Origin: Aerococcus urinaehominis
Lineage (GTDB): Bacteria; Bacillota; Bacilli; Lactobacillales; Aerococcaceae
Direction: 5' to 3'
NCBI RefSeq assembly: GCF_001543245.1
Contig: NZ_CP014163.1
Location: 950,387-974,386 of the forward strand
Length of the DNA: 24,000 bases
Shown: in pieces, positions 7,696-17,896 of the stretch
Numbering within the stretch: position 1 is the first letter of the stretch
Layout of the letters: each line of letters opens with the position of its first letter
Translations under genes and position numbers: made by a program
The notes under the pieces: model-generated
Database searches by the model: none
What the model was told of the DNA's origin: nothing
Seen by the model: the letters and a program-made list of their open reading frames with translations, nothing else

Positions 7696-8000
7696 AGCAA
7701 ATTTGCTAGTGTTTGCCCAAGTCGATCACGGTAAACGCTTAAATATAAATCAAAAGAACAAGCTTAGTATTTTAGCAATCTTACAGCCCCCTATATATAT
7801 AAATGATCTGGTTGAGTCACTTTAAAATATGACTATTTCGACTATGATCAAAAAAACACTAATTTTGGTTAAAATTACAGCATCACTTGACTAAAAATCT
7901 TCCTGAAAGACTGCTAATCATTAGGGGATTAATCACCCTTTCCTAATTCGAGATGAAGAACGGCTGATTGAAGAAAGACCGCGCCTTGTTGCTTACAATA

Positions 8001-8029
8001 TTGATAAAATAAATTTGTAATCGATTACT
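8001..8029 (+). promoter_or_regulatory. Putative promoter/operator of bacteriocin module 1; contains the 12-bp perfect palindrome GTAATCGATTAC (8017-8028)
   Basis: TTGATA (8001-8006), a 17-nt spacer, then ATTACT (8024-8029). The 14-nt string TGTAATCGATTACT is identical to 12155-12168, although the flanking spacer sequence differs. Confidence 0.35.
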
Positions 8030-8113
8030 TCAAGTTGAATCACTAATGTTACCATTTATTTTAAGGACTTGTTAGCCTTGCTAGTATGTTATACCTAGAA
8101 AGGAGTGGGTAGT

Positions 8114-8473
8114 GTGCAAGAAGCAGCAAAATATATGCGAATCTATGTATGGATGCGATCATTTATCAACCTAATTGGCATAACGAGCTTTGCTTGGGAC
8201 ATCTTTCTAGTAGCTGCTGTCGATTTATTCACTAACTACGACGATTTCCACCAAAAATTGCACGAAAATAAAAGTTTAATCTACGCCTTTAGCCAATTTA
8301 TCTGGCGTGGCTACGTTTTTTTAACCGGACTAGGCATGTTTACCAAGTTACTAAGAACAGGCCAGTTAATTTGGCAAGCAAGCGATGTCCTGTATGAACT
8401 TGGCTTTGTTGCGGTCCTAAGTTTACCTTTTACTATAATCATCTATATCGCCATTAGAAGGGGAGATATCTAA
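8114..8473 (+). CDS. 119-aa polytopic membrane protein, putative bacteriocin immunity protein (paralog A)
   Basis: Track ORF 8105..8473 trimmed to the GTG at 8114. AGGAG lies 8 nt upstream, and the length then matches the paralog at 12485. It has three to four hydrophobic segments. Its stop overlaps the next start (ATCTAATG). By eye it is roughly 60 percent identical to the 12485 product. Confidence 0.6.
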   Translation: MQEAAKYMRIYVWMRSFINLIGITSFAWDIFLVAAVDLFTNYDDFHQKLHENKSLIYAFSQFIWRGYVFLTGLGMFTKLLRTGQLIWQASDVLYELGFVAVLSLPFTIIIYIAIRRGDI

Positions 8474-8670
8474 TGAAAATCTTACATGAAACATCTATTA
8501 ATGAGGGGTTACTACTGCAAATTAAAGGCGGTGGTAAGCGAACTGATATTGCAGCTGGTATATTACATGGCGCTGCTGCTGGTTTTAAAGTTTGTCCCGC
8601 CGGCTATAAGACTGCTTGTGCTGTAGCTATTGGCGCAGCGGGAGCAGCTTATAGCGCTTGGGGAAATTAG
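8473..8670 (+). CDS. Double-glycine-leader class II bacteriocin precursor, LafX-like Gly/Ala-rich peptide (beta-1; 65 aa)
   Basis: Leader and mature peptide: MKILHETSINEGLLLQIKGG|GKRTDIAAGILHGAAAGFKVCPAGYKTACAVAIGAAGAAYSAWGN. Hydrophobic residues occupy -4, -7 and -12. The mature peptide has 2 Cys and GxxxG/AxxxA motifs. A GGGGAG Shine-Dalgarno lies inside the upstream gene. Confidence 0.85.
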   Translation: MKILHETSINEGLLLQIKGGGKRTDIAAGILHGAAAGFKVCPAGYKTACAVAIGAAGAAYSAWGN

Positions 8671-8758
8671 ATCTTATCATTATATAAAACAACCTTGTAT
8701 AGCCCCATCTTGCATGAACCACCTCCATTAAGTAAACAATAATATAAATAAATACTGA

Positions 8759-8793
8759 GACCGCCTATACTAGTTGTATAGGTGATCTTTTTT
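8759..8793 (+). terminator. Rho-independent terminator of module 1
   Basis: The stem pairs 8764-8770 with 8776-8782, with an imperfect extension. The loop is tagtt, followed by T6 (8788-8793). Confidence 0.55.
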
Positions 8794-8863
8794 ATATCCG
8801 TATCTTTGATTCCATTTTTTAAAGAAATCAGATGAGCTACATCTTCTATACTAAATTAATACA

Positions 8864-8896
8864 TAAAAATCCCCCTAAAGTAGTTTACCTTAGGGG
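8864..8896 (-). terminator. Terminator after the DUF975-like gene (end of the ABC operon)
   Basis: The 7-bp stem CCCCTAA/TTAGGGG pairs 8872-8878 with 8890-8896 around an 11-nt loop. It is followed on the minus strand by a T5 run. Confidence 0.5.
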
Positions 8897-8959
8897 AAGC
8901 ACATTAAATTCTAGATTCTCTCATTATATGAATATTGGCATCACTGTCGAGTTAGTTAA

Positions 8960-9583
8960 CTATGCCTGCACAGCTTGCCTGTAAAGAGCTATCATTTTTT
9001 CCTGATAGCTACGATAACTGGCAACCATTAGCGGGCTGGTTACGACAGTGGCTAGCAGCATAAAACATAGTAAAGGGGTCAGGCTAGCACCTGCTACACC
9101 TGGCTGGCGTAAAGGAGCTAGGAAAATCGGGTAGCCCAATAACAACATAGCTAGTTGCAGACCTGCAATTTTAAAAGAGCAAGTCAAACGGTAGCCACAT
9201 ATTTGCCAACGGTGACCCTTGGCTAGCTGCTGACTCTCTGCCAGTAATTTTCGTGAGCCACTGTCAGACCTATCCATCAACAGGTATGGCGCTAGGCTAT
9301 AATCCAATGACTTGATCACGCCAGGAACCACCAATAGTAATGACCATAAGCCCACTTTCACACAGGTAACTAGTTGTAGAAAGACGAAGCGACTTAGGTA
9401 ACTGGTAGGCTCCTGCCTAGAACCAGCAAACAACCGCCATAAACCAAGCGCCAAGACTAACTGTGCCAAAATATTAGCTAGTAGCCCCCAAAACTCATAG
9501 AAGCTCGTTAAGTAGACATTAGCCATTAAAAGTATTAGTAAATAGATCGCCAATAAACGGTTGGTTGTTAAAGTGAGTTTCAT
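8960..9583 (-). CDS. 207-aa polytopic membrane protein, DUF975-like; candidate immunity or partner protein for the upstream GG peptide
   Basis: Track ORF 8960..9667 trimmed to the ATG at 9583, with AGGAG 8 nt upstream. It has five to six hydrophobic segments. The segment VIKSLDYSLAPYLLMDRSDSGSRKLLAESQQLAKGHRWQ resembles the DUF975 core as I remember it, which has not been verified. Confidence 0.55.
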   Translation of the reverse strand: MKLTLTTNRLLAIYLLILLMANVYLTSFYEFWGLLANILAQLVLALGLWRLFAGSRQEPTSYLSRFVFLQLVTCVKVGLWSLLLVVPGVIKSLDYSLAPYLLMDRSDSGSRKLLAESQQLAKGHRWQICGYRLTCSFKIAGLQLAMLLLGYPIFLAPLRQPGVAGASLTPLLCFMLLATVVTSPLMVASYRSYQEKMIALYRQAVQA

Positions 9584-9611
9584 TTTCAAAGCTCCTATTT
9601 CTCTTAAATTT

Positions 9612-9788
9612 TTATTGGTAAACCTGAGCTGGACAATAAACGGCTGGGAATTTAATGCTTTGGGCAATTTCGGGCCTCATCTTACCGCTAGCAACTAAGT
9701 CAGCTATCCGAGCTTGCTGAGCCCTAATATTGGCACATAGATTGCCACCACGAACTAGTCCTAGCTGACGATTATCGAGCTTATTCAT
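9612..9788 (-). CDS. Double-glycine-leader peptide precursor (58 aa) with a hydrophilic, two-cysteine 43-aa mature part
   Basis: Track ORF 9612..9878 trimmed to the ATG at 9788, preceded by AGGAGGTGAT. The start overlaps the ABC stop by 8 nt (ATGAATAA). Sequence: MNKLDNRQLGLVRGG|NLCANIRAQQARIADLVASGKMRPEIAQSIKFPAVYCPAQVYQ. The leader has L-12, L-7 and V-4. Confidence 0.75.
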   Translation of the reverse strand: MNKLDNRQLGLVRGGNLCANIRAQQARIADLVASGKMRPEIAQSIKFPAVYCPAQVYQ

Positions 9789-11949
9789 CTGAATCACCTC
9801 CTGTCTGGTCTTGGCCATACATGGCCTGATAAAGTTCAGACTGCTGTAATAGAGTTTGCTGGTCACCGTCACCAACAATCCGTCCCTGGTCTAATAAAAT
9901 CACCCGGTCAAATTGGGCAACCAAGGGTAGATGATGGGCAATAAAAATAATGGTCTTGTCTAAAGAAAGTAAGTAACTAACCACCTGCTTTTCTAGGATG
10001 GGATCCATGGCACTAGTCGCCTCATCTAAGATATAAATATCTGCATCCCGTAACAAGGCACGAGCTAGGACAATCCTTTGTTTTTGCCCACCTGATAAGT
10101 TTTGACCCCCTTCTTCGAGCGGTTGGTCTAGCCCCAGCGAATGACTCAGGGCAAAATCTCTTAAGTCCAACTGATTCATGACATATTCAATGCGGCCGAA
10201 GCTAATCTGGTCCTCTTGGTCCAAGACCAAGTTATTATACAAACTCCCCTTTATAATAAAATTATCCTGGGGCAGGTAATAAATTCGCTCGCGAAGCGAT
10301 TGAATTTTCAAATCATTAATAGCAAGGTCCTCAAAACAGATTTGACCAGTTTGGGGACGATGGAGGGCAACTAGGAGTTTGGCCAGGCTAGACTTACCAG
10401 ACCCGCTAGGCCCTACCAAGGCTACTTTTTGCCCATAAGGGATGGTTAAATTAATATCTTCTAAGGTAATTTGATTAATATTATAGGCGAAGGACAGTTG
10501 GCAGATACTGATCTCCTTCTTCAAGTTATTCGTATAAATCCCATACTGGTTGCTTGCATACTCACTGTCAATTTCCAGGACCTCATTTAAACGCTGGTTG
10601 GCAACACCAGCTTCCTGGAGACTAGCTTGAAGCTTGAAAATATTTTGCAAGGGACCAGTAAAATAAACAACTAGGGCATTGTAAGTGATTAATTGCCCCA
10701 AAGTCAGCTGGCCTTGCATCACCAGATAAGCGCCATACCACAAGGTCAGGCTAGTTGTTAACAAACCAACCAATTCTTTGATACTTTCTTGCTTAATCTC
10801 TAAAACAGCTGTAATGAGCGCATCCCGCATGGTAACTAAAAACTGAAATCTTACTGCCTGCTTAGCAGCAGTCGTATAGTTATTGGTTTTTAGGCTCTCG
10901 ATTCCTTGTAAGTATTCAATAATCTTAGCGTTCAATTGACTTTGACTGGACATTTCTTCTCTGTTGGCCTGATCGAGTGGCTTAACAAATCGGTAGATGG
11001 CCAAGAAATAAAAAGGCAAAGAGAGTAAAGTTAATAAAAATAAAAAGCCATTTTGCCAGGCTAGTGTTAACCCAACAATAACCGCCATCCCAACATCTAA
11101 AACCAGGGTGATAGATGCTGAGCCTAGAGCATTGACAATTTTATTGGCATCTAAGAAGCGAGAGATAATGTCACCGGCCTGGCGGTTAGTAAAAAAATCT
11201 AAGGGTAGGTCTAAAACATGGTTAAAATAATCTAACATAATTGTTTGGCTCATCTCTTGACCCAAAATTACCAATAATTTGCTCCGAATGTATTTAAAAA
11301 TGACCATGGCCAAGTAGGCAGCTAATAAACCTAGAGAAAAAACATTTAGCCAGTGATAGTTGTTCCGAGGAATTAATTGGTCAATCAGTACTTGAAAATA
11401 AAAAGAAGACCCAATGCTAATAGCGATGACCACTATTGAAGCCAAAATAATTTTAGCCAGCAGGATTTTATTATCCATAATCAGTGAGAAAAACTGTGAT
11501 AGCCCTTTACTTTTATGAACTTGGATTTGATAATTTTCTCCTGGCGTCGGAATCAAGAGGACACCCGTCCAAATACTTGCAAAGTCAGCCAAGCTCATCT
11601 GTATTTTAGCTTCAGCCGGATCAGCAATTAACAGTTGGTCACCCTCTAGACCATAGACAACTAGGTAATGGAGTTGGTCACCTTCTTTAATGACATGGGC
11701 GATGGCCGGGAAGGACATGTCCGGATCTTGCCAAACAGTATTATCAGCCTCAACTGCCAAACAATCAAAGCCATAGCCCTCTAAGGCTATTTTCAGACCA
11801 TAGGCAGAAGTCCCCTGCTTATCTGTACCTGATTCTCGTCTTAACCGGTGTAAGGGCACCTGGCTGCCGTAATGGGCTAGGACCATGGCCAAACAGGCAA
11901 CACCACAATCACTCTGGTCCTGTTGGGCAATAAATTTAAATTTAGCCAT
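9781..11949 (-). CDS. Bacteriocin-processing ABC transporter with N-terminal C39 peptidase domain (722 aa; ComA/LagD/BlpA type)
   Basis: C39 catalytic Cys context QDQSDCGVACLAMVLAHYG and His context HYLVVYG. It has a six-TM ABC domain, Walker A GPSGSGKSS, signature LSGGQKQR and Walker B IYILDEATSAMD. GGGGGAG lies 6 nt before the ATG. Confidence 0.95.
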   Translation of the reverse strand: MAKFKFIAQQDQSDCGVACLAMVLAHYGSQVPLHRLRRESGTDKQGTSAYGLKIALEGYGFDCLAVEADNTVWQDPDMSFPAIAHVIKEGDQLHYLVVYGLEGDQLLIADPAEAKIQMSLADFASIWTGVLLIPTPGENYQIQVHKSKGLSQFFSLIMDNKILLAKIILASIVVIAISIGSSFYFQVLIDQLIPRNNYHWLNVFSLGLLAAYLAMVIFKYIRSKLLVILGQEMSQTIMLDYFNHVLDLPLDFFTNRQAGDIISRFLDANKIVNALGSASITLVLDVGMAVIVGLTLAWQNGFLFLLTLLSLPFYFLAIYRFVKPLDQANREEMSSQSQLNAKIIEYLQGIESLKTNNYTTAAKQAVRFQFLVTMRDALITAVLEIKQESIKELVGLLTTSLTLWYGAYLVMQGQLTLGQLITYNALVVYFTGPLQNIFKLQASLQEAGVANQRLNEVLEIDSEYASNQYGIYTNNLKKEISICQLSFAYNINQITLEDINLTIPYGQKVALVGPSGSGKSSLAKLLVALHRPQTGQICFEDLAINDLKIQSLRERIYYLPQDNFIIKGSLYNNLVLDQEDQISFGRIEYVMNQLDLRDFALSHSLGLDQPLEEGGQNLSGGQKQRIVLARALLRDADIYILDEATSAMDPILEKQVVSYLLSLDKTIIFIAHHLPLVAQFDRVILLDQGRIVGDGDQQTLLQQSELYQAMYGQDQTGGDSDE

Positions 11950-11985
11950 CTATAGCTCCCCCAAATTTTAAATCAGTTTTAGCTT

Positions 11986-12050
11986 ATTCTATCTATTTAA
12001 AAACAAAACTGTGATAATCCTTCCTAAACTGCTATTAATTTTTCATGAAT
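11986..12050 (-). promoter_or_regulatory. Candidate regulated promoter of the ABC operon with paired direct repeats
   Basis: Minus strand reads ATTCATGA (12050..12043), 13 nt, GTTTAGGA (12029..12022), 30 nt, then TAGAAT (11991..11986). The repeat starts are 21 bp apart, the same layout as at 16827-16890. Confidence 0.4.
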
Positions 12051-12139
12051 CGAACAGCATAGTATATTTAACTAACTTATTCACAGTTTAAGAAGAAAAA
12101 AAGTAATTTAATGAAGGTTTTTTCTAAGAACTTAAAATC

Positions 12140-12168
12140 TTGTTATACTAAAGATGTAATCGATTACT
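12140..12168 (+). promoter_or_regulatory. Putative promoter/operator of bacteriocin module 3; contains the palindrome GTAATCGATTAC (12156-12167)
   Basis: TTGTTA (12140-12145), a 17-nt spacer, then ATTACT (12163-12168). The geometry and palindrome match 8001-8029. Confidence 0.35.
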
Positions 12169-12235
12169 AAACGAACCTTGGCAACCAATGGAAGTTTTGT
12201 TAGTTAGCTAAGCCTAGTGAAAGGAGGTCGTCATA

Positions 12236-12454
12236 ATGAATTTTACAAAATTAGAAGATCAATCACTAAAATCAATTCGAGCCGGCCATAATAAGTGGCA
12301 GCAATTAGGAGAGGTGACTAAAGGAATGGTTGAGGTTGGTGCTGGTGGTGCAGCTTTAGGTAGTGTAGTCTGTGGACCTGGTTGTGCCGTTCTAGGTGGT
12401 TTAGCAGGTGTCGCTGTAGGTGGCGCCACAGGTGCCTTAGATGCCCAAAATTAA
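12236..12454 (+). CDS. AG-leader class IIb-type bacteriocin precursor, LafA/GatA-like (alpha; 72 aa)
   Basis: Sequence: MNFTKLEDQSLKSIRAG|HNKWQQLGEVTKGMVEVGAGGAALGSVVCGPGCAVLGGLAGVAVGGATGALDAQN. The leader has L-12, L-7 and I-4. The mature N-terminus xNxWQ and the VCGPGCAV motif recall lactacin F LafA (RNNWQTN...ICGPACAV) as I remember it. AAGGAGG lies 8 nt upstream. Confidence 0.85.
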   Translation: MNFTKLEDQSLKSIRAGHNKWQQLGEVTKGMVEVGAGGAALGSVVCGPGCAVLGGLAGVAVGGATGALDAQN

Positions 12455-12484
12455 AAAATTAAATTTTAAAAGGAGGTTGGCCCT

Positions 12485-12844
12485 ATGACAAAAGCAGCAA
12501 AATATATGCGTATCTATGTCTGGATTAGATTGTTGATCAACCTGCTAGGCATAACGAGCTTTGCTTGGGATATCCTTCTAGTAGCTGCTGTCCACTTATT
12601 TACCAGCTACAAAGATTTCCACAAAATTTTTCAAGCAAACAAAAACATGACCTATTTCTTCAGCCAAGCAATCTGGCGTGGCTATGTTGATTTAACTGGA
12701 GTAGCTATGCTTATCAGATTATTACAATCAGGTCAACTGTCCTGGCAAGCCAGTGATATTATTTATAACTTTGGTGGTATTATTTTGTTAAGTTTAATTT
12801 GTACTGGAATTACTTATATAGCTGTTAGAAGGGGAGATATCTAA
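12485..12844 (+). CDS. 119-aa polytopic membrane protein, putative immunity protein (paralog B)
   Basis: AGGAGG lies 8 nt upstream. It is a paralog of 8114..8473, sharing AAKYMRIYVW, ITSFAWDI, LVAAV, IWRGYV, SWQASD and RRGDI. Its stop overlaps the next ATG (TAATG). Confidence 0.65.
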   Translation: MTKAAKYMRIYVWIRLLINLLGITSFAWDILLVAAVHLFTSYKDFHKIFQANKNMTYFFSQAIWRGYVDLTGVAMLIRLLQSGQLSWQASDIIYNFGGIILLSLICTGITYIAVRRGDI

Positions 12845-13038
12845 TGAAAATTTTACATGAAAAAACTATTAAAGCAGAAAGACTACTAAAAATAAAAGGC
12901 GGTGGTAAGCGCACTGATGTGGCATCTAATATGCTGTCGTGGGCTGCAGCTGGCTACCGCATTTGTCCCGCCTATAAACCGGTCTGTGCCGTAGTTGGAG
13001 GAGCAGCCGGTGCAGCTTATGGCGCCTGGGGTAATTAA
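12844..13038 (+). CDS. Double-glycine-leader bacteriocin precursor (beta-2; 64 aa), paralog of 8473..8670
   Basis: Sequence: MKILHEKTIKAERLLKIKGG|GKRTDVASNMLSWAAAGYRICPAYKPVCAVVGGAAGAAYGAWGN. By eye it is roughly 70 percent identical to beta-1. Confidence 0.85.
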   Translation: MKILHEKTIKAERLLKIKGGGKRTDVASNMLSWAAAGYRICPAYKPVCAVVGGAAGAAYGAWGN

Positions 13039-13054
13039 TAATAAGTAAACAACA

Positions 13055-13094
13055 TAAAAAAACTTCGCTGAGCAACTCGCTAGCGAAGTTTTTT
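13055..13094. terminator. Bidirectional terminator between the convergent beta-2 and response regulator genes
   Basis: The stem CTTCGCT/AGCGAAG pairs 13063-13069 with 13082-13088. It is flanked by an A-run (13055-13062) and a T-run (13089-13094). Confidence 0.65.
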
Positions 13095-13848
13095 ATGTCT
13101 TATGTTTAGCTAATACAAATTTTTCTAACGCCACTTTCTTGCTGGCTGAGAAGGGTAATTGGTCACCATTATCAAGCGTGAGCAATCGCTTGTCACCATC
13201 AACCAAACGAATTTTATCGGGATTGATTAGGGTGCTACGACTAATACCAAATAAGTCTTGGGGATATTCCCTTTGGTAGGCTTTAATTTTGCCATAGAAC
13301 TGATAATGCCCGGTCTCTGTCACCAGTTCCAAACGGTGGGGCAGCGATGAGATCTGGATATAAATCACCTCATCAATTAAAAATCGATAGACTTTGTTGC
13401 CTATTTTAAAAGAAATCATAGGATCCTCTTGATTTGAAACGCTATTTTCTTGGTCCGTGATCAAATTTAAACACTGGAAAATTTCTTGACGCATCACCTC
13501 TTTATCACCCTTTTCAACTAGGGCAAAGGGTTCTACCTTGCGCTTCAAGACCATAGGAGCATATTTAGTATGGCTGGTAATAAAAATAATTTTACCAAAG
13601 GGATCTATCTGGCGAATCGCTGTTGCTAAATCAATGCCATTGGTGTCAAGGTTGCCTAATTCAATATCTAGAAAATAAACACCCAGTCTCACTTGATCTG
13701 CCTGAATCTGATTAAATAAGTCAGCTGGATCTGGACTGAAGCCCCCCATTTTATAAGCATGGTTATGAAAAAGGACATAATCTTTAATGATATCAGTAAT
13801 ATCTAGTAGCTGGATAGAATTATCGTCACAAATATAGATTGAGTGCAT
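13093..13848 (-). CDS. LytTR-family response regulator (251 aa; AgrA/ComE/PlnC type)
   Basis: The receiver domain has the phospho-acceptor context VYFLDIEL. The C-terminal LytTR domain reads ISFKIGNKVYRFLIDEVIYIQ...FGISRSTLINPDKI. TAGGAGG lies 5 nt upstream. Confidence 0.9.
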   Translation of the reverse strand: MHSIYICDDNSIQLLDITDIIKDYVLFHNHAYKMGGFSPDPADLFNQIQADQVRLGVYFLDIELGNLDTNGIDLATAIRQIDPFGKIIFITSHTKYAPMVLKRKVEPFALVEKGDKEVMRQEIFQCLNLITDQENSVSNQEDPMISFKIGNKVYRFLIDEVIYIQISSLPHRLELVTETGHYQFYGKIKAYQREYPQDLFGISRSTLINPDKIRLVDGDKRLLTLDNGDQLPFSASKKVALEKFVLAKHKT

Positions 13849-15112
13849 AAAAACCTCCTAAGGGGCTGTGATAATCAATTGAACAGAAAAAGTGTTAGCT
13901 TGATTTTCAAGATGTATAAAAAGATTAGGATATTTCTTGGCGATACGCCGCAAATTAGACAAACCCAAACCCGTATGATTGGCTTTACTAGAAAAGCCCT
14001 TAATTTGAATTTTTTCTAAATCAATCGCTTGATTTAAAGAGTTTTCAATATAAATTTCAATTTGATTGCCTTCTAAATAAAACAAGATATTGATTTGACG
14101 AGCCTGGTTCTGATCAGCTACCGCCTCAAGCGCATTGTCTAATAAAATTCCTAGAATACGAATCAGGTCATAGTCAGCAAGATAAAAATCCTGTATATTA
14201 TGCGGACATTCAAAATAAACCAAGACTCCCTTGTCTGCAATCAAATAGAATTTTTCTAGTAGCAGGGCTTTTACATAAGGATTTTTTACCTTAGTAAGAT
14301 CTAAAATTTTATCATTTTTGATATCTAACTCTCTTTTTGAGTAGCTATCCAAGCCTGCTACAAATTCTAATAAATCATCTATACGATTATCATTCAAAAG
14401 AGATTTAACAGTAGTCAATAGATTCTTATAATCATGCCTAAAGGCCCTTATTTTATCTTGGCTTGCTTCTAGTTGGTCTACATATTTAGCCATATTATCT
14501 AGTCGAGCCTCCATTAACTTATGCTCGTATTCTCTCCTGTTATTTTGCAAGATAACAAATACAAACACTGCCACAACTATAATCTGCAAAACAAAAAAAT
14601 AGAAAGACTCCTGTACCCGATTTTGAGAACCTGCACTCGTAGGAAGTATAATATTATTGTAGAACCCAAGTATGTTCAGCAAAGCGAATATACTATAATT
14701 AACCAGAGGAAGTAGCGGATTTTTAAAATATGGCGAATTGATGTATCGCTTTGTCACAACTAAAGTCAAAATACACACTAGCAAACTAGGGATTAATCGC
14801 TTCAAGTAGTCAAAAAATATTATTTGCGAAACATCCTCTATTGCTTGACTCATCAAATAATTTCCTGCCACATAATCAAAGCATTCCAAAATAAATTGTG
14901 GCATTAGTGTAGCAAAAATGATCTGTGATGACTCCCTTTTTTTGAATTATATAAAAAGAAAAGGAATATGGCATAGAGAATATCGATTAAATTTACGGTA
15001 TTAAAAGGCAATAAATTGAGTAGTGAATTAAGAAAAATAAAAGGATATATGCTTACTAGGCCAATTCCAATTTTTCTTAATTTAAAATCATCTAACAGGT
15101 AAGCTGTTCCCA

Positions 15113-15120
15113 AACATCTA
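15113..15120. repeat. Target-site duplication, left copy (AACATCTA; possibly 9 bp with the A at 15112)
   Basis: Identical to 16446-16453 and immediately flanks the IS inverted repeats. Confidence 0.8.
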
Positions 15121-16445
15121 GATTAAGTCCATATAATTGTGTAAAAAGAAAAACCATAATAATCTTTTTTGGTTACAATGTAATTGGCTAAAACACATTG
15201 AAAGGAAGATTATTATGGCTCAACTAAATATTACCCTAAACTTAGAAGAAATTACAGAGGCAGTTCTAAACAGTGATATGGATCAGATGATGAAGTCCCT
15301 AACTGTAACCATCTTTAATGCCTATATGCAAGCAGAGCGTGAGGAATTTATTAATGCTAAGCGCTATGAGCGCACAGATGACCGGAAAGATTATCGTAAT
15401 GGCTCCTATAAAAGAAACTTTAAAACAAAGGTAGGGACTGTTGAACTGGATGTCCCTCGGACACGATCAGGAGAATTTGATACCAAGCTATTCGATAAAT
15501 ATCAACGTATGGACAAGGCCTTTGTGGCTGTTTTAACCGAAATGTATATTAATGGGGTCTCAACACGCCGTATTAAGAAGGTTGTTGAAACACTCTGTGG
15601 CGAAGGTGTTTCTAAATCATTTGTCTCTTCAGTAAATAAAAACTTGGACCCTGCTGTTTTCGAATTTAAAGGGCGTTCCCTAACACATACGAATTTTCGA
15701 TATGTTTATGTCGATGCCATGTATATTAAAGTTCGCGAAAACCATCGTTCTGTCTCTAAAGGTGTTTATATTGCTCAGGGTATTAACGATGATAATCGTC
15801 GCGAAATTATCGGCTTTATGATTGCTGATAATGAATCAGAAGAAAACTGGAAGAACTTCTTCCTTGATTTAAAGGCCAGAGGCCTAACTAAACCAACATT
15901 AATTATATCTGACGCCCACAAGGGACTAAAATCAGCGATTAGTAATCAATTTTTAGGCACTACCTGGCAACGGTGTACGGTTCATTTTCTACGTAATATT
16001 TTAGCTCATTTTCCAAAAAAGGATTGCAGTCATGAGAGAAGTCTTCTAAAGAGAATATTTAATGCTGATAGTCAACAAAGAGCGCGAGAGTTAAAATTTG
16101 AATTTGTAGAATACGTTAGTGGCAATGAGAAATATGACAAAGCTGTTAATACGCTAGAGGAAGGCTTCGAAGATGCTATCCCATACTTATTAGAACCCAC
16201 ACCTTATCGCGTTTCACTGAAAACAACTAACAGTCTAGAAAGGCTAAATCGAGAAATTAGAAGAAGAGAGAAAGTTGTCGGCCTCTTTCCTAATATAGAG
16301 GCTGCGGAGCGACTTATAGGAAGTGTATTGCTTGATTTGCATGAATATTGGGAGACATGTCCTCATAAATTCTTTAATAACATAGTCTAAATATTTATAC
16401 CCACCAATTACATTCTATAATTTACACAAGATTGTGGACTTGACA
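15121..16445 (+). mobile_element. IS256-family insertion sequence (about 1.3 kb)
   Basis: Imperfect terminal inverted repeats: left gattAAGTCCAtataaTTGTGTAAA (15121-15145), against the right-end reverse complement tgtcAAGTCCAcaatcTTGTGTAAA (16445-16421). It has a single transposase ORF and a perfect 8-9 bp direct repeat of the target. Confidence 0.85.
15215..16390 (+). CDS. IS256-family (mutator-type) DDE transposase (391 aa)
   Basis: Track ORF 15137..16390 trimmed to the ATG at 15215 (GAAAGGAAG upstream). MAQLNITLNLEE...YERTDDRKDYRNGSYKRNFKTKVGTVELDVPRTRSGEF...VYVDAMYIKVRE...ISDAHKGL...WQRCTVHFLRN is a typical IS256-family sequence. Confidence 0.9.
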   Translation: MAQLNITLNLEEITEAVLNSDMDQMMKSLTVTIFNAYMQAEREEFINAKRYERTDDRKDYRNGSYKRNFKTKVGTVELDVPRTRSGEFDTKLFDKYQRMDKAFVAVLTEMYINGVSTRRIKKVVETLCGEGVSKSFVSSVNKNLDPAVFEFKGRSLTHTNFRYVYVDAMYIKVRENHRSVSKGVYIAQGINDDNRREIIGFMIADNESEENWKNFFLDLKARGLTKPTLIISDAHKGLKSAISNQFLGTTWQRCTVHFLRNILAHFPKKDCSHERSLLKRIFNADSQQRARELKFEFVEYVSGNEKYDKAVNTLEEGFEDAIPYLLEPTPYRVSLKTTNSLERLNREIRRREKVVGLFPNIEAAERLIGSVLLDLHEYWETCPHKFFNNIV

Positions 16446-16453
16446 AACATCTA
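16446..16453. repeat. Target-site duplication, right copy (AACATCTA)
   Basis: Identical to 15113-15120. Confidence 0.8.
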
Positions 16454-16511
16454 AAAGCAAAAACGGCTACTATTCTTAATAAAAAGGCCCAAAGTGTCAT
16501 ATCTATACTAC

Positions 16512-16640
16512 TTATTTGATACGGCATTGTCTTAATAGATTAAAAATCAGCGCACAATTTTTTTCTTTAGAATTAGCCTGGTTATAGTTGAAAACGCCAC
16601 CTTTAATTAATTTAAGTTGATTAATTGCTATTTTTTTCAA
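16512..16640 (-). CDS. Putative inducer-peptide (pheromone) precursor with double-glycine leader (42 aa, TTG start)
   Basis: Not in the ORF track. AAGGAG (16654..16649) lies 8 nt before the TTG at 16640. Sequence: MKKIAINQLKLIKGG|VFNYNQANSKEKNCALIFNLLRQCRIK. The 3' end overlaps the kinase start (16527) by 16 nt, which is the classic IP-HK-RR gene order. Confidence 0.7.
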   Translation of the reverse strand: MKKIAINQLKLIKGGVFNYNQANSKEKNCALIFNLLRQCRIK

Positions 16641-16813
16641 AATAAACACTCCTTTAATATTTAAAATTCTGCACTAAAAATTCATTTCAATGGCACGATA
16701 GTATATAATACTCACTTCTTACTAGATATATATTAATTGTCAAAAAAATATTTAGCTACTCAATCATCTTATCAGTAAATGAGTACTACTTTATAGCCCC
16801 CCCCTCACAAACC

Positions 16814-16890
16814 ATTCAAGAGATAAATTCAAGAACTAAATACTTGCATTCAGGAAACATTCTCCCTTCTCTCAATATAGTTGTTATAAT
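16814..16890 (+). promoter_or_regulatory. Candidate LytTR-regulated promoter: three ATTCA(A/G)GA direct repeats plus an extended -10
   Basis: ATTCAAGA occurs at 16814-16821 and 16827-16834, and ATTCAGGA at 16848-16855. The last two starts are 21 bp apart. TGTTATAAT lies at 16882-16890, 37 nt after the last repeat start. No good -35 is present. Confidence 0.5.
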
Positions 16891-16933
16891 AATGTTGTAA
16901 GCAGTTACAAAGTTTTTTGAAAGGAGCTTTCCG

Positions 16934-17106
16934 ATGCAAAATGATAAGTCATTACCTGATGAGTGGTTAAAAAAGTCCGTGGTGGTTCCAATGATTACAT
17001 CTGGACCCAAATAGGTCGGCATGCTGGTAATTTTATGAATTGTATGGACAAGCCTGTTAGCACCGACCCCTTCGTTTCTGCCGGTTACTGTATTGGTCCA
17101 AAATGA
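16934..17106 (+). pseudogene. Frameshifted double-glycine-leader bacteriocin precursor
   Basis: Not in the track. GAAAGGAG lies 7 nt before the ATG at 16934. As written, the frame stops after 26 codons. Adding one A to the A6 run (16969-16974) gives MQNDKSLPDEWLKKVRGG|SNDYIWTQIGRHAGNFMNCMDKPVSTDPFVSAGYCIGPK, with L-12, L-7 and V-4, ending at 17106. Confidence 0.6.
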
Positions 17107-17130
17107 GTGATTTAAACTAGGAGGATTATC

Positions 17131-17289
17131 ATGAAAAAATATCATACCTTGAAAAAATCAGAATTGATGCAAATCAAAGCTGGAGGTGCTGCTTTGAATA
17201 TTATCTCAACCATTGGTAGTTTTCTTATAGCTGACGCTTGGAGACATAGCGATCAAATTAGGGAGGGCTACCAACAAACGCGCCACTAG
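17131..17289 (+). CDS. GG/AG-leader bacteriocin-like peptide precursor (52 aa)
   Basis: Not in the track. AGGAGG lies 6 nt before the ATG. Sequence: MKKYHTLKKSELMQIKAG(G)|AALNIISTIGSFLIADAWRHSDQIREGYQQTRH. The LxxSELxxIxAG leader fits the consensus if cleavage follows AG. Confidence 0.75.
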   Translation: MKKYHTLKKSELMQIKAGGAALNIISTIGSFLIADAWRHSDQIREGYQQTRH

Positions 17290-17315
17290 TAACATATAAA
17301 TGAAGGATGATTACT

Positions 17316-17528
17316 ATGAAAAAGGGATTAATTGAGGATTTAAAAGTGATTATAGCAACCTTCATCTTTGGTCTAGCCTGGCTGCTAATCACTAGCTACA
17401 TATCAGGAAGTCAACCTCTGCTAGTAGCTGAAGATTATAAATTTCTCTTTACCTATACCTTTATTGTATCGGTCGTGTTCATAGGCAGCCGTCTAATTAA
17501 AGGTCAAAAAACTAATAAAAGTAATTAA
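17316..17528 (+). CDS. Small two-TM membrane protein (70 aa), putative immunity protein of the 16934/17131 peptide pair
   Basis: Track ORF 17307..17528 trimmed to the ATG at 17316, with AAGGA 8 nt upstream. It has two hydrophobic helices and a basic C-terminus. It is the last gene before the terminator. Confidence 0.55.
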   Translation: MKKGLIEDLKVIIATFIFGLAWLLITSYISGSQPLLVAEDYKFLFTYTFIVSVVFIGSRLIKGQKTNKSN

Positions 17529-17532
17529 TTAA

Positions 17533-17560
17533 AGTAGCCCGCAACCGGGCTACTTTTATA
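17533..17560 (+). terminator. Rho-independent terminator
   Basis: The 9-bp stem AGTAGCCCG/CGGGCTACT pairs 17533-17541 with 17546-17554. The loop is caac, followed by TTTTATATTTT. Confidence 0.7.
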
Positions 17561-17598
17561 TTTTCAGCGCAAGATCTGCTAAATTAGTCCCCAATCTA

Positions 17599-17715
17599 TC
17601 AGGCACAAATTTTACCATAACAGGCCCGCAACCAATCCCAGGCTTTCTTTAGGTCCTGAACGCCTCCAAAGCCCGCTTTAACTTGTCTGAGCTCTTGATT
17701 AGATAAAGTTTTCAT
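17599..17715 (-). CDS. Orphan AG-leader peptide precursor (38 aa)
   Basis: Not in the track. AAAGGAGGGGG lies upstream of the ATG at 17715. Sequence: MKTLSNQELRQVKAG|FGGVQDLKKAWDWLRACYGKICA. The leader matches the LSxxELxxVxxG consensus exactly apart from Ala at -2. The mature 23-mer ends in C-x5-C-A. Confidence 0.65.
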   Translation of the reverse strand: MKTLSNQELRQVKAGFGGVQDLKKAWDWLRACYGKICA

Positions 17716-17841
17716 CAACTTCCCCCTCCTTTAATTGTATATACAATTCCATAATAAACCAAGTCTGTTTTAACTCTGATTAGTCTTCTTAAATCTGCTT
17801 TTTTTATTCCTGAACGAAAACTGTTGGTATCATTAGCTAAC

Positions 17842-17885
17842 AAAATAGCACCCTAGCGAAACTATCCTGCTAAGGTGCTATTTTT
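17842..17885 (-). terminator. Terminator after the distal metQ-like gene
   Basis: The 8-bp stem ATAGCACC/GGTGCTAT pairs 17845-17852 with 17874-17881, with further inner pairing. It is flanked by A and T runs and lies 12 nt after the stop at 17897. Confidence 0.55.
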
Positions 17886-17896
17886 ACCTACTGATA

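Follow-up and report, generated by a model that had tools for sequence, protein, structure and literature searches.

Among bacteriocin loci controlled by peptide pheromones, three-component class II bacteriocin operons are represented by plnABCD of Lactiplantibacillus plantarum, sppIP-sppK-sppR of Latilactobacillus sakei, cbnS-K-R of Carnobacterium, and entF-K-R of Enterococcus faecium. In streptococcal bacteriocin loci of the blp/com type, natural "cheater" or non-producer alleles are found, in which usually the exporter is hit, and signal sensing and the induction of immunity are kept. In staphylococci, the insertion of IS256 into the kinase gene agrC has been repeatedly reported for S. aureus and S. 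epidermidis, at varied positions, with 8-10-bp duplications, and with loss of agr function (PMC5174738; PMC7891712). We analyzed a 24,000-nt stretch of DNA, referred to as the window (contig NZ_CP014163.1, positions 950,387 to 974,386 of the forward strand), from the genome of the type strain CCUG 42038B of the urinary bacterium Aerococcus urinaehominis (CP014163; 1,831,400 bp). That the locus might be a streptococcal blp locus was considered and rejected, since homologues of the GluRS of this genome are from Aerococcus and the genus comprises only 25 species. Here the gene of an HPK10 (AgrC/ComD-type) histidine kinase, located between an inducer-peptide gene and a response regulator gene, is interrupted by an insertion sequence (IS) assigned to the IS256 family. 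We consider it very probable that this kinase gene is a pseudogene, which carries two independent lesions, the IS insertion and a −1 frameshift, as a case of ordinary gene decay. The parts of the interrupted gene and of the element inside it are as follows, with all positions given in the window unless stated otherwise:

13858-16527, minus strand: kinase gene, whole extent, with two lesions
16446-16527, minus strand: 5′ fragment of the kinase gene, codons 1-27, with the first transmembrane segment; it includes the right copy of the duplication (16446-16453)
15121-16445, plus strand: IS256-family insertion sequence of 1325 bp; its two ends, 15121-15145 and 16421-16445, are inverted repeats of about 25 bp that match imperfectly
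15215-16390, plus strand: transposase gene, 391 amino acids, Mutator/IS256 type, the sole open reading frame in the element, antisense to the kinase operon
15113-15120: left copy of the 8-bp target-site duplication AACATCTA, with the right copy at 16446-16453
14904-15112, minus strand: middle fragment of the kinase gene, codons 28-96 of the upstream frame, with transmembrane segments 2-3, ending with TAA at 14904-14906
14937-14943, minus strand: run of seven adenosines (A7) on the coding strand, the likeliest site of the −1 frameshift
13858-14904, minus strand: 3′ part of the kinase gene, 348 codons, with transmembrane segments 4-7 and the H-, N-, and G-boxes; the histidine codon is at 14434-14436

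The first lesion was defined by the position of the IS in the reading frame. The target-site duplication starts with the third base of codon 25, takes in codons 26 and 27, and stops at the first base of codon 28, which places the IS in codons 26-27, in agreement with the insertion at codon 27 given in the original prediction. In its present state the 5′ fragment runs into the IS and stops after 39 codons. When the flanks were joined in silico by removing the IS and one copy of the repeat, the open reading frame starting at 16527 fused in frame with that starting at 15113, just as had been anticipated. This fused frame is only 96 codons long, and it ends at the TAA at 14904-14906, while the 348 codons of the catalytic part are in a different frame. 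Hence, the expectation that deletion of the IS would rebuild the kinase held for the fusion of the two frames and failed for the catalytic part, which is left out of frame by the −1 frameshift; since this frameshift remains, removal of the IS alone would not restore the kinase. The two open frames share about 50 nt that contain the A7 run, and the −1 shift must fall inside this overlap. A continuous protein of 445 amino acids was obtained when the A7 run was read one base longer and the IS was removed. The frameshift, located near codon 85, is most likely the loss of one adenosine from the homopolymer. As a result of the IS at codons 26-27 and of the −1 frameshift, an uninterrupted translatable HPK10 gene was not found at this site. 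The stop codon of the upstream frame shares bases with the start codon of the catalytic frame (TAATG, 14902-14906), which is a classic termination-reinitiation layout; it is probably a coincidence, and, were the upstream part to be translated, it could permit a split product.

The boundaries of the element could be fixed independently of the kinase site, because its copies in the genome start and stop at the same bases. A BLAST search of the element against the whole genome, which supplied the copy count that the original prediction had asked for, detected 13 full-length copies, all aligned over positions 1-1325 with identical first and last bases (13 of 13); nine of them were 100% and four 99.9% identical. 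The transposase matched PF00872 with an E-value of 2.7e-128 over residues 2-380 of its 391 amino acids, as a single Mutator-type DDE transposase, and the NCBIfam model transpos_IS256 (NF033543) with 387.6 bits (cut-off 150). These boundaries and matches bear out the placement of an IS256-family element at 15121-16445. The repeat that had been described around it, AACATCTA, is exact and 8 bp long on both sides of the copy in the kinase gene, and the 10-nt match given by a repeat finder arises because the IS itself terminates in CA, two bases that by chance equal the target. Among the 13 copies the target duplication is perfect and 8 bp long in nine, has a single mismatch in one and a one-base offset in another, and three copies have none. 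The fact that nine of the 13 copies carry a perfect 8-bp duplication indicates that the direct repeat is a signature of transposition and not a chance match. The copy in the kinase gene is 100% identical to eight others and has a perfect duplication, and therefore its insertion is recent, as had been proposed.

The distribution of the other copies gives a wider picture of this element, which is in active, ongoing expansion in the genome. Genome positions are marked G000:C1 here to tell them from window positions; examples of copies are found at G000:C1 146483-147807, 699037-700361, and 1676256-1677580. Seven of the 13 copies are grouped within 1.59-1.76 Mb, and at least two further copies (401361 and 1031861) interrupt long open frames. 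The copies that lack a duplication suggest IS-mediated deletions or rearrangements. At G000:C1:1651640-1651702, near two full copies, two short pieces of the right IS end, 40 and 28 nt long, lie inverted to each other and overlap; they resemble a solo-end relic or a palindrome. IS256 itself is 1324 bp long and encodes a transposase of 390 amino acids (PMC5174738). The closest transposase outside this genome was 70% identical and had no name, and a search of the IS against the plasmid collection gave no match. The element is probably an unnamed member of the IS256 family.

To identify the interrupted kinase, its 348-amino-acid part and the 445-amino-acid read-through were compared with protein families and with 5.8 billion proteins. 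The 348-amino-acid part matched PF14501, a GHKL domain of the HATPase_c_5 type, with an E-value of 1e-15 and 57.9 bits (cut-off 22), and the AgrC model of NCBIfam (NF046015) with 101 bits, which is far under its 500-bit equivalog cut-off. The H-box FRHDYKN (His254 of the read-through), the N-box LDNALE, and the G-box HTGLGL are kept and align with those of homologues, and a hydropathy scan of the read-through gave six clear hydrophobic segments and one weak segment between residues 7 and 216. Judged by its sequence, the kinase is of the HPK10 (AgrC/ComD-type) kind, AgrC-like in fold and family and no AgrC orthologue; the domain match, the three boxes and the roughly six to seven hydrophobic segments agree with the AgrC/ComD-like sensor that had been proposed. 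The read-through aligns with GHKL/HPK10 relatives from about residue 10 to its end with about 38% identity, and its 445 amino acids compare with 428-448 in these relatives, a length that holds only when both lesions are read through. The only near-identical (100%) matches among the 5.8 billion proteins were the truncated products of this genome, and the next-best were GHKL kinases of 428-437 amino acids, 38-39% identical, from Enterococcus cecorum, E. columbae, Latilactobacillus, and Companilactobacillus. A claim of sequence homology for the N-terminus was considered and dropped, as phmmer searches with N-terminal fragments gave no significant match; the first 97 residues are taken as the true N-terminus on the grounds of collinearity, length, hydrophobicity, and position in the operon. 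The genome contains one other HPK10-type kinase gene (G000:C1:1197796-1199118), which is intact and encodes 440 amino acids with the H-box FRHDWAN, 27% identical to the kinase described here. It lies about 3 kb from its likely LytTR regulator (G000:C1:1201773-1202033), with genes of an EamA-type transporter and an M20 peptidase between them on the opposite strand.

Several observations weigh against the reading of this gene as a kinase pseudogene with two lesions. No intact allele or empty site was present in any searched collection, and the ancestral sequence is thus deduced and not observed. The original prediction had proposed to look for an empty site in related genomes with the repaired junction; an exact 28-nt pattern over this junction had no match in the genome-contig or metagenome-contig collections. 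Close relatives of the kinase were absent from genome and metagenome contigs in protein-guided scans and from the 24 other species of the genus in a DNA search, and in the collection of 5.8 billion proteins the best match apart from its own 100% cluster was 39% identical. The frameshift is placed only within the roughly 50-nt overlap of the frames, and its exact site needs a close homologue. The N-terminal 97 residues alone gave nothing significant in the phmmer search against homologues (E > 2). All assemblies of the species are apparently of one type strain, and they confirm the sequence and are silent on the population. The missing empty site is expected and is not counter-evidence, because only assemblies identical to the type strain were found for A. 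urinaehominis. The original prediction had named as evidence against itself the lack of an uninterrupted kinase in related strains together with a repaired protein that does not align with HPK10 kinases; the former was indeed observed and reflects the lack of other sequenced strains, while the 445-amino-acid read-through of both lesions does align with HPK10 kinases.

The kinase gene belongs to an operon on the minus strand with the gene order peptide (16640-16512), kinase (16527-13858), and regulator (13848-13093), in which two further genes have the following features:

16512-16640, minus strand: inducer-peptide gene, 42 codons, which begins at a TTG 8 nt downstream of AAAGGAG and encodes a double-glycine leader with KGG at its end and a cationic mature part of 27 residues
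13093-13848, minus strand: LytTR-type response regulator gene, 251 amino acids, intact, with its own ribosome-binding site AGGAGG 10 nt after the kinase stop codon

The last 16 nt of the inducer-peptide gene overlap the kinase ATG, consistent with the position that had been described for the kinase, directly downstream of this gene and overlapping it. The inducer peptide had no Pfam or NCBIfam match, and neither the peptide sequences nor the assembly accession had a match in the literature searched. The regulator matched PF04397 with 56 bits, PF00072 with 28.3 bits, slightly below the cut-off, and the AgrA model with 104 bits, also below the cut-off. The peptide, kinase, and regulator genes form a peptide-pheromone three-component regulatory operon in a class II bacteriocin island of low guanine-plus-cytosine (GC) content. 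The island also contains genes of double-glycine-leader peptides, small membrane proteins, and an intact ABC exporter with a C39 peptidase (TIGR01193, 700 bits, cut-off 524). No HlyD/ComB-type accessory gene was present among the gene calls beside the exporter (8960-9878), which are an open reading frame of 58 amino acids and a DUF975 membrane protein of 207 amino acids. The original prediction took the regulator, exporter, and peptide genes to be intact, which is true for the regulator and the exporter, while a double-glycine-leader peptide gene at 16934-17106 is frameshifted at a run of six adenosines (A6; 16969-16974), the second single-base homopolymer lesion in the island. In this gene the start of the leader is in one frame, and the last leader residues, with the double-glycine cleavage motif, and the mature part are in another.

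Upstream of the operon that includes the gene at 16934 there is a candidate pair of regulator-binding direct repeats, for which a phasing of about 21 bp is typical, ATTCAAGAA and ATTCAGGAA, 21 bp apart. The 8-mer pattern is not enriched in the window, with seven occurrences versus 3.9 expected and eight of 100 shuffles reaching seven. In front of the peptide-kinase operon and of the exporter, no convincing pair was found at the proper position. The GC content is 34.4% in the kinase and regulator genes and 37.7% in the island (7700-17890), compared with 42.8% in the genome and 43% in both flanks, and other Aerococcus species have only distant kinase homologues, with at most 30% identity. The low GC content and the presence of only distant homologues in Aerococcus suggest that the island was probably acquired horizontally. 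The nearest relatives of the kinase are in Enterococcus and Lactobacillaceae, which is consistent with such acquisition.

The IS lies between the peptide gene and the rest of the operon, with its transposase gene in the opposite orientation, so that by this position it separates the promoter region of the peptide gene from the kinase and regulator genes, as had been noted. With the gene in this state the full-length kinase could not be made, and therefore the strain should be unable to sense its own pheromone. This kinase would not phosphorylate the regulator, and the pheromone-induced transcription of the island operons, including the bacteriocin and immunity genes, would be lost. The structure of the gene is observed directly, and this phenotype is expected by analogy with the three-component circuits of lactic acid bacteria and with agr of staphylococci. 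Cross-talk from the second HPK10 kinase of the genome is conceivable but unsupported.

An alternative is that the regulation was rewired and not lost, with the regulator gene, and perhaps a 348-amino-acid kinase started at the ATG within TAATG, expressed from a promoter that faces outward at the left IS end or by transcripts that continue out of the IS, leading to pheromone-independent expression of bacteriocin and immunity genes. IS256 can change the expression of neighboring genes, for example rot and walKR (PMC5174738), and the regulator gene here has its own strong ribosome-binding site. An outward promoter-like site, ATTACA-17-TATTAT, with 9 of 12 matches, is located in the left IS end (15184-15156), and a −35-like hexamer, TTTACA, 19 nt from that end; however, promoter-like sites occur at the frequency expected from shuffled sequences (16 versus 16.4), and no acceptable −10 hexamer follows TTTACA in the flank. 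Because these counts equal the shuffled expectation, the scan for promoters and terminators gives no evidence for an outward promoter. The stop-start overlap TAATG could permit re-initiation of the 348-amino-acid kinase, but no Shine-Dalgarno sequence precedes the ATG at 14904, and the putative protein would lack the first three transmembrane segments. Overall we consider such rewiring improbable. A more specific version, in which transcription from the left IS end would supply both the regulator and a re-initiated, sensor-less 348-amino-acid kinase that signals constitutively and keeps the immunity and bacteriocin genes on, making the circuit pheromone-independent, appears quite improbable.

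It could also be argued that the gene has the IS insertion as its only true lesion and that the A7 frameshift stems from an error in sequencing the homopolymer, in which case excision of the IS would restore the kinase. The backbone of the genome is a PacBio assembly, and the second island gene is likewise one base short in a run of adenosines, a pattern that errors in long reads can give. However, the data behind the CP014163 assembly are 592x PacBio and 170x HiSeq reads, the latter with 100% coverage (PMC4841142). A separate draft, GCA_900103385.1, has two contigs whose edges fall within the IS (window positions 15470 and 16123); they match the window with 100% identity along 7613 and 6599 bases, spanning both IS junctions and both adenosine runs. 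A truncated kinase product of 331/348 amino acids was called in three assemblies. Given the depth of the two kinds of reads and the exact match of the draft, we regard a homopolymer error as very unlikely.

A reversible off state, in which the adenosine run would act as a slipped-strand phase-variation switch and precise excision of the IS would allow subpopulations to regain the kinase, appears highly unlikely. It could explain why two island genes are broken at short adenosine runs, and it has a counterpart in S. epidermidis, where infections harbor side by side subpopulations that carry IS256 in agrC and others that lack it, which was termed phase variation (PMC7891712). On the other hand, runs of 6-7 bases seldom slip, both lesions would have to revert jointly, and independent assemblies show the gene in the same state. 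Finally, misplacement of a multi-copy repeat during assembly, which would make the IS at this site an artefact, is extremely unlikely even with 13 near-identical copies in the genome and draft contigs that break within the IS. This very copy has a perfect 8-bp duplication on its two sides, like other copies, and the flanks join as one continuous frame. Both junctions were independently reproduced at 100% identity in the draft, with 350 and 323 bases of the IS attached to unique flanks.

With the kinase gene read as a pseudogene with two lesions, the type strain of A. urinaehominis would carry a bacteriocin island with a dead regulatory sensor, which is of relevance mainly for annotation and for the biology of the strain. 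Genome-mining tools would call this island complete, yet its induction is unlikely. The analysis further describes an IS256-family element that has no name and is in active expansion, with several of its 13 copies located within genes, and it adds a non-staphylococcal case of an IS256-type element disabling an HPK10 quorum-sensing kinase. The finding raises no new mechanistic question.

The closest counterpart of this locus is the staphylococcal agrC::IS256, in which an IS256-family element is likewise inserted in the membrane-sensor part of an HPK10 kinase gene in a genome with many copies of the IS, and in which the entire autoinduction circuit is silenced (PMC5174738; PMC7891712). The two cases differ in the genus, in the IS itself, which encodes here a transposase of 391 amino acids with its nearest outside relative at 70% identity, in the second lesion present in the gene, and in the kinase, which reaches 101 bits against the 500-bit cut-off for AgrC. 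Here a C39 ABC transporter exports the signal, a linear double-glycine peptide, and the output consists of bacteriocin genes, while in staphylococci the signal is a thiolactone made by AgrB and the output consists of virulence genes. In its composition the locus resembles the three-component operons of lactic acid bacteria, as an inducer peptide with a double-glycine leader, an HPK10 kinase, and a LytTR regulator are encoded beside double-glycine-leader bacteriocin and immunity genes and a C39 ABC exporter. It departs from them in being inactivated, in having nearest kinases only about 38% identical, in the lack of an HlyD/ComB-type gene called beside the exporter, and in the lack of convincing regulator repeats upstream of the operon. 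The natural loss of one component of a pheromone-controlled bacteriocin locus, with intact neighbors, is a feature shared with the disrupted streptococcal blp/com loci; in contrast to those loci, it is the sensor that is lost here, and therefore the induction of immunity should fail as well.

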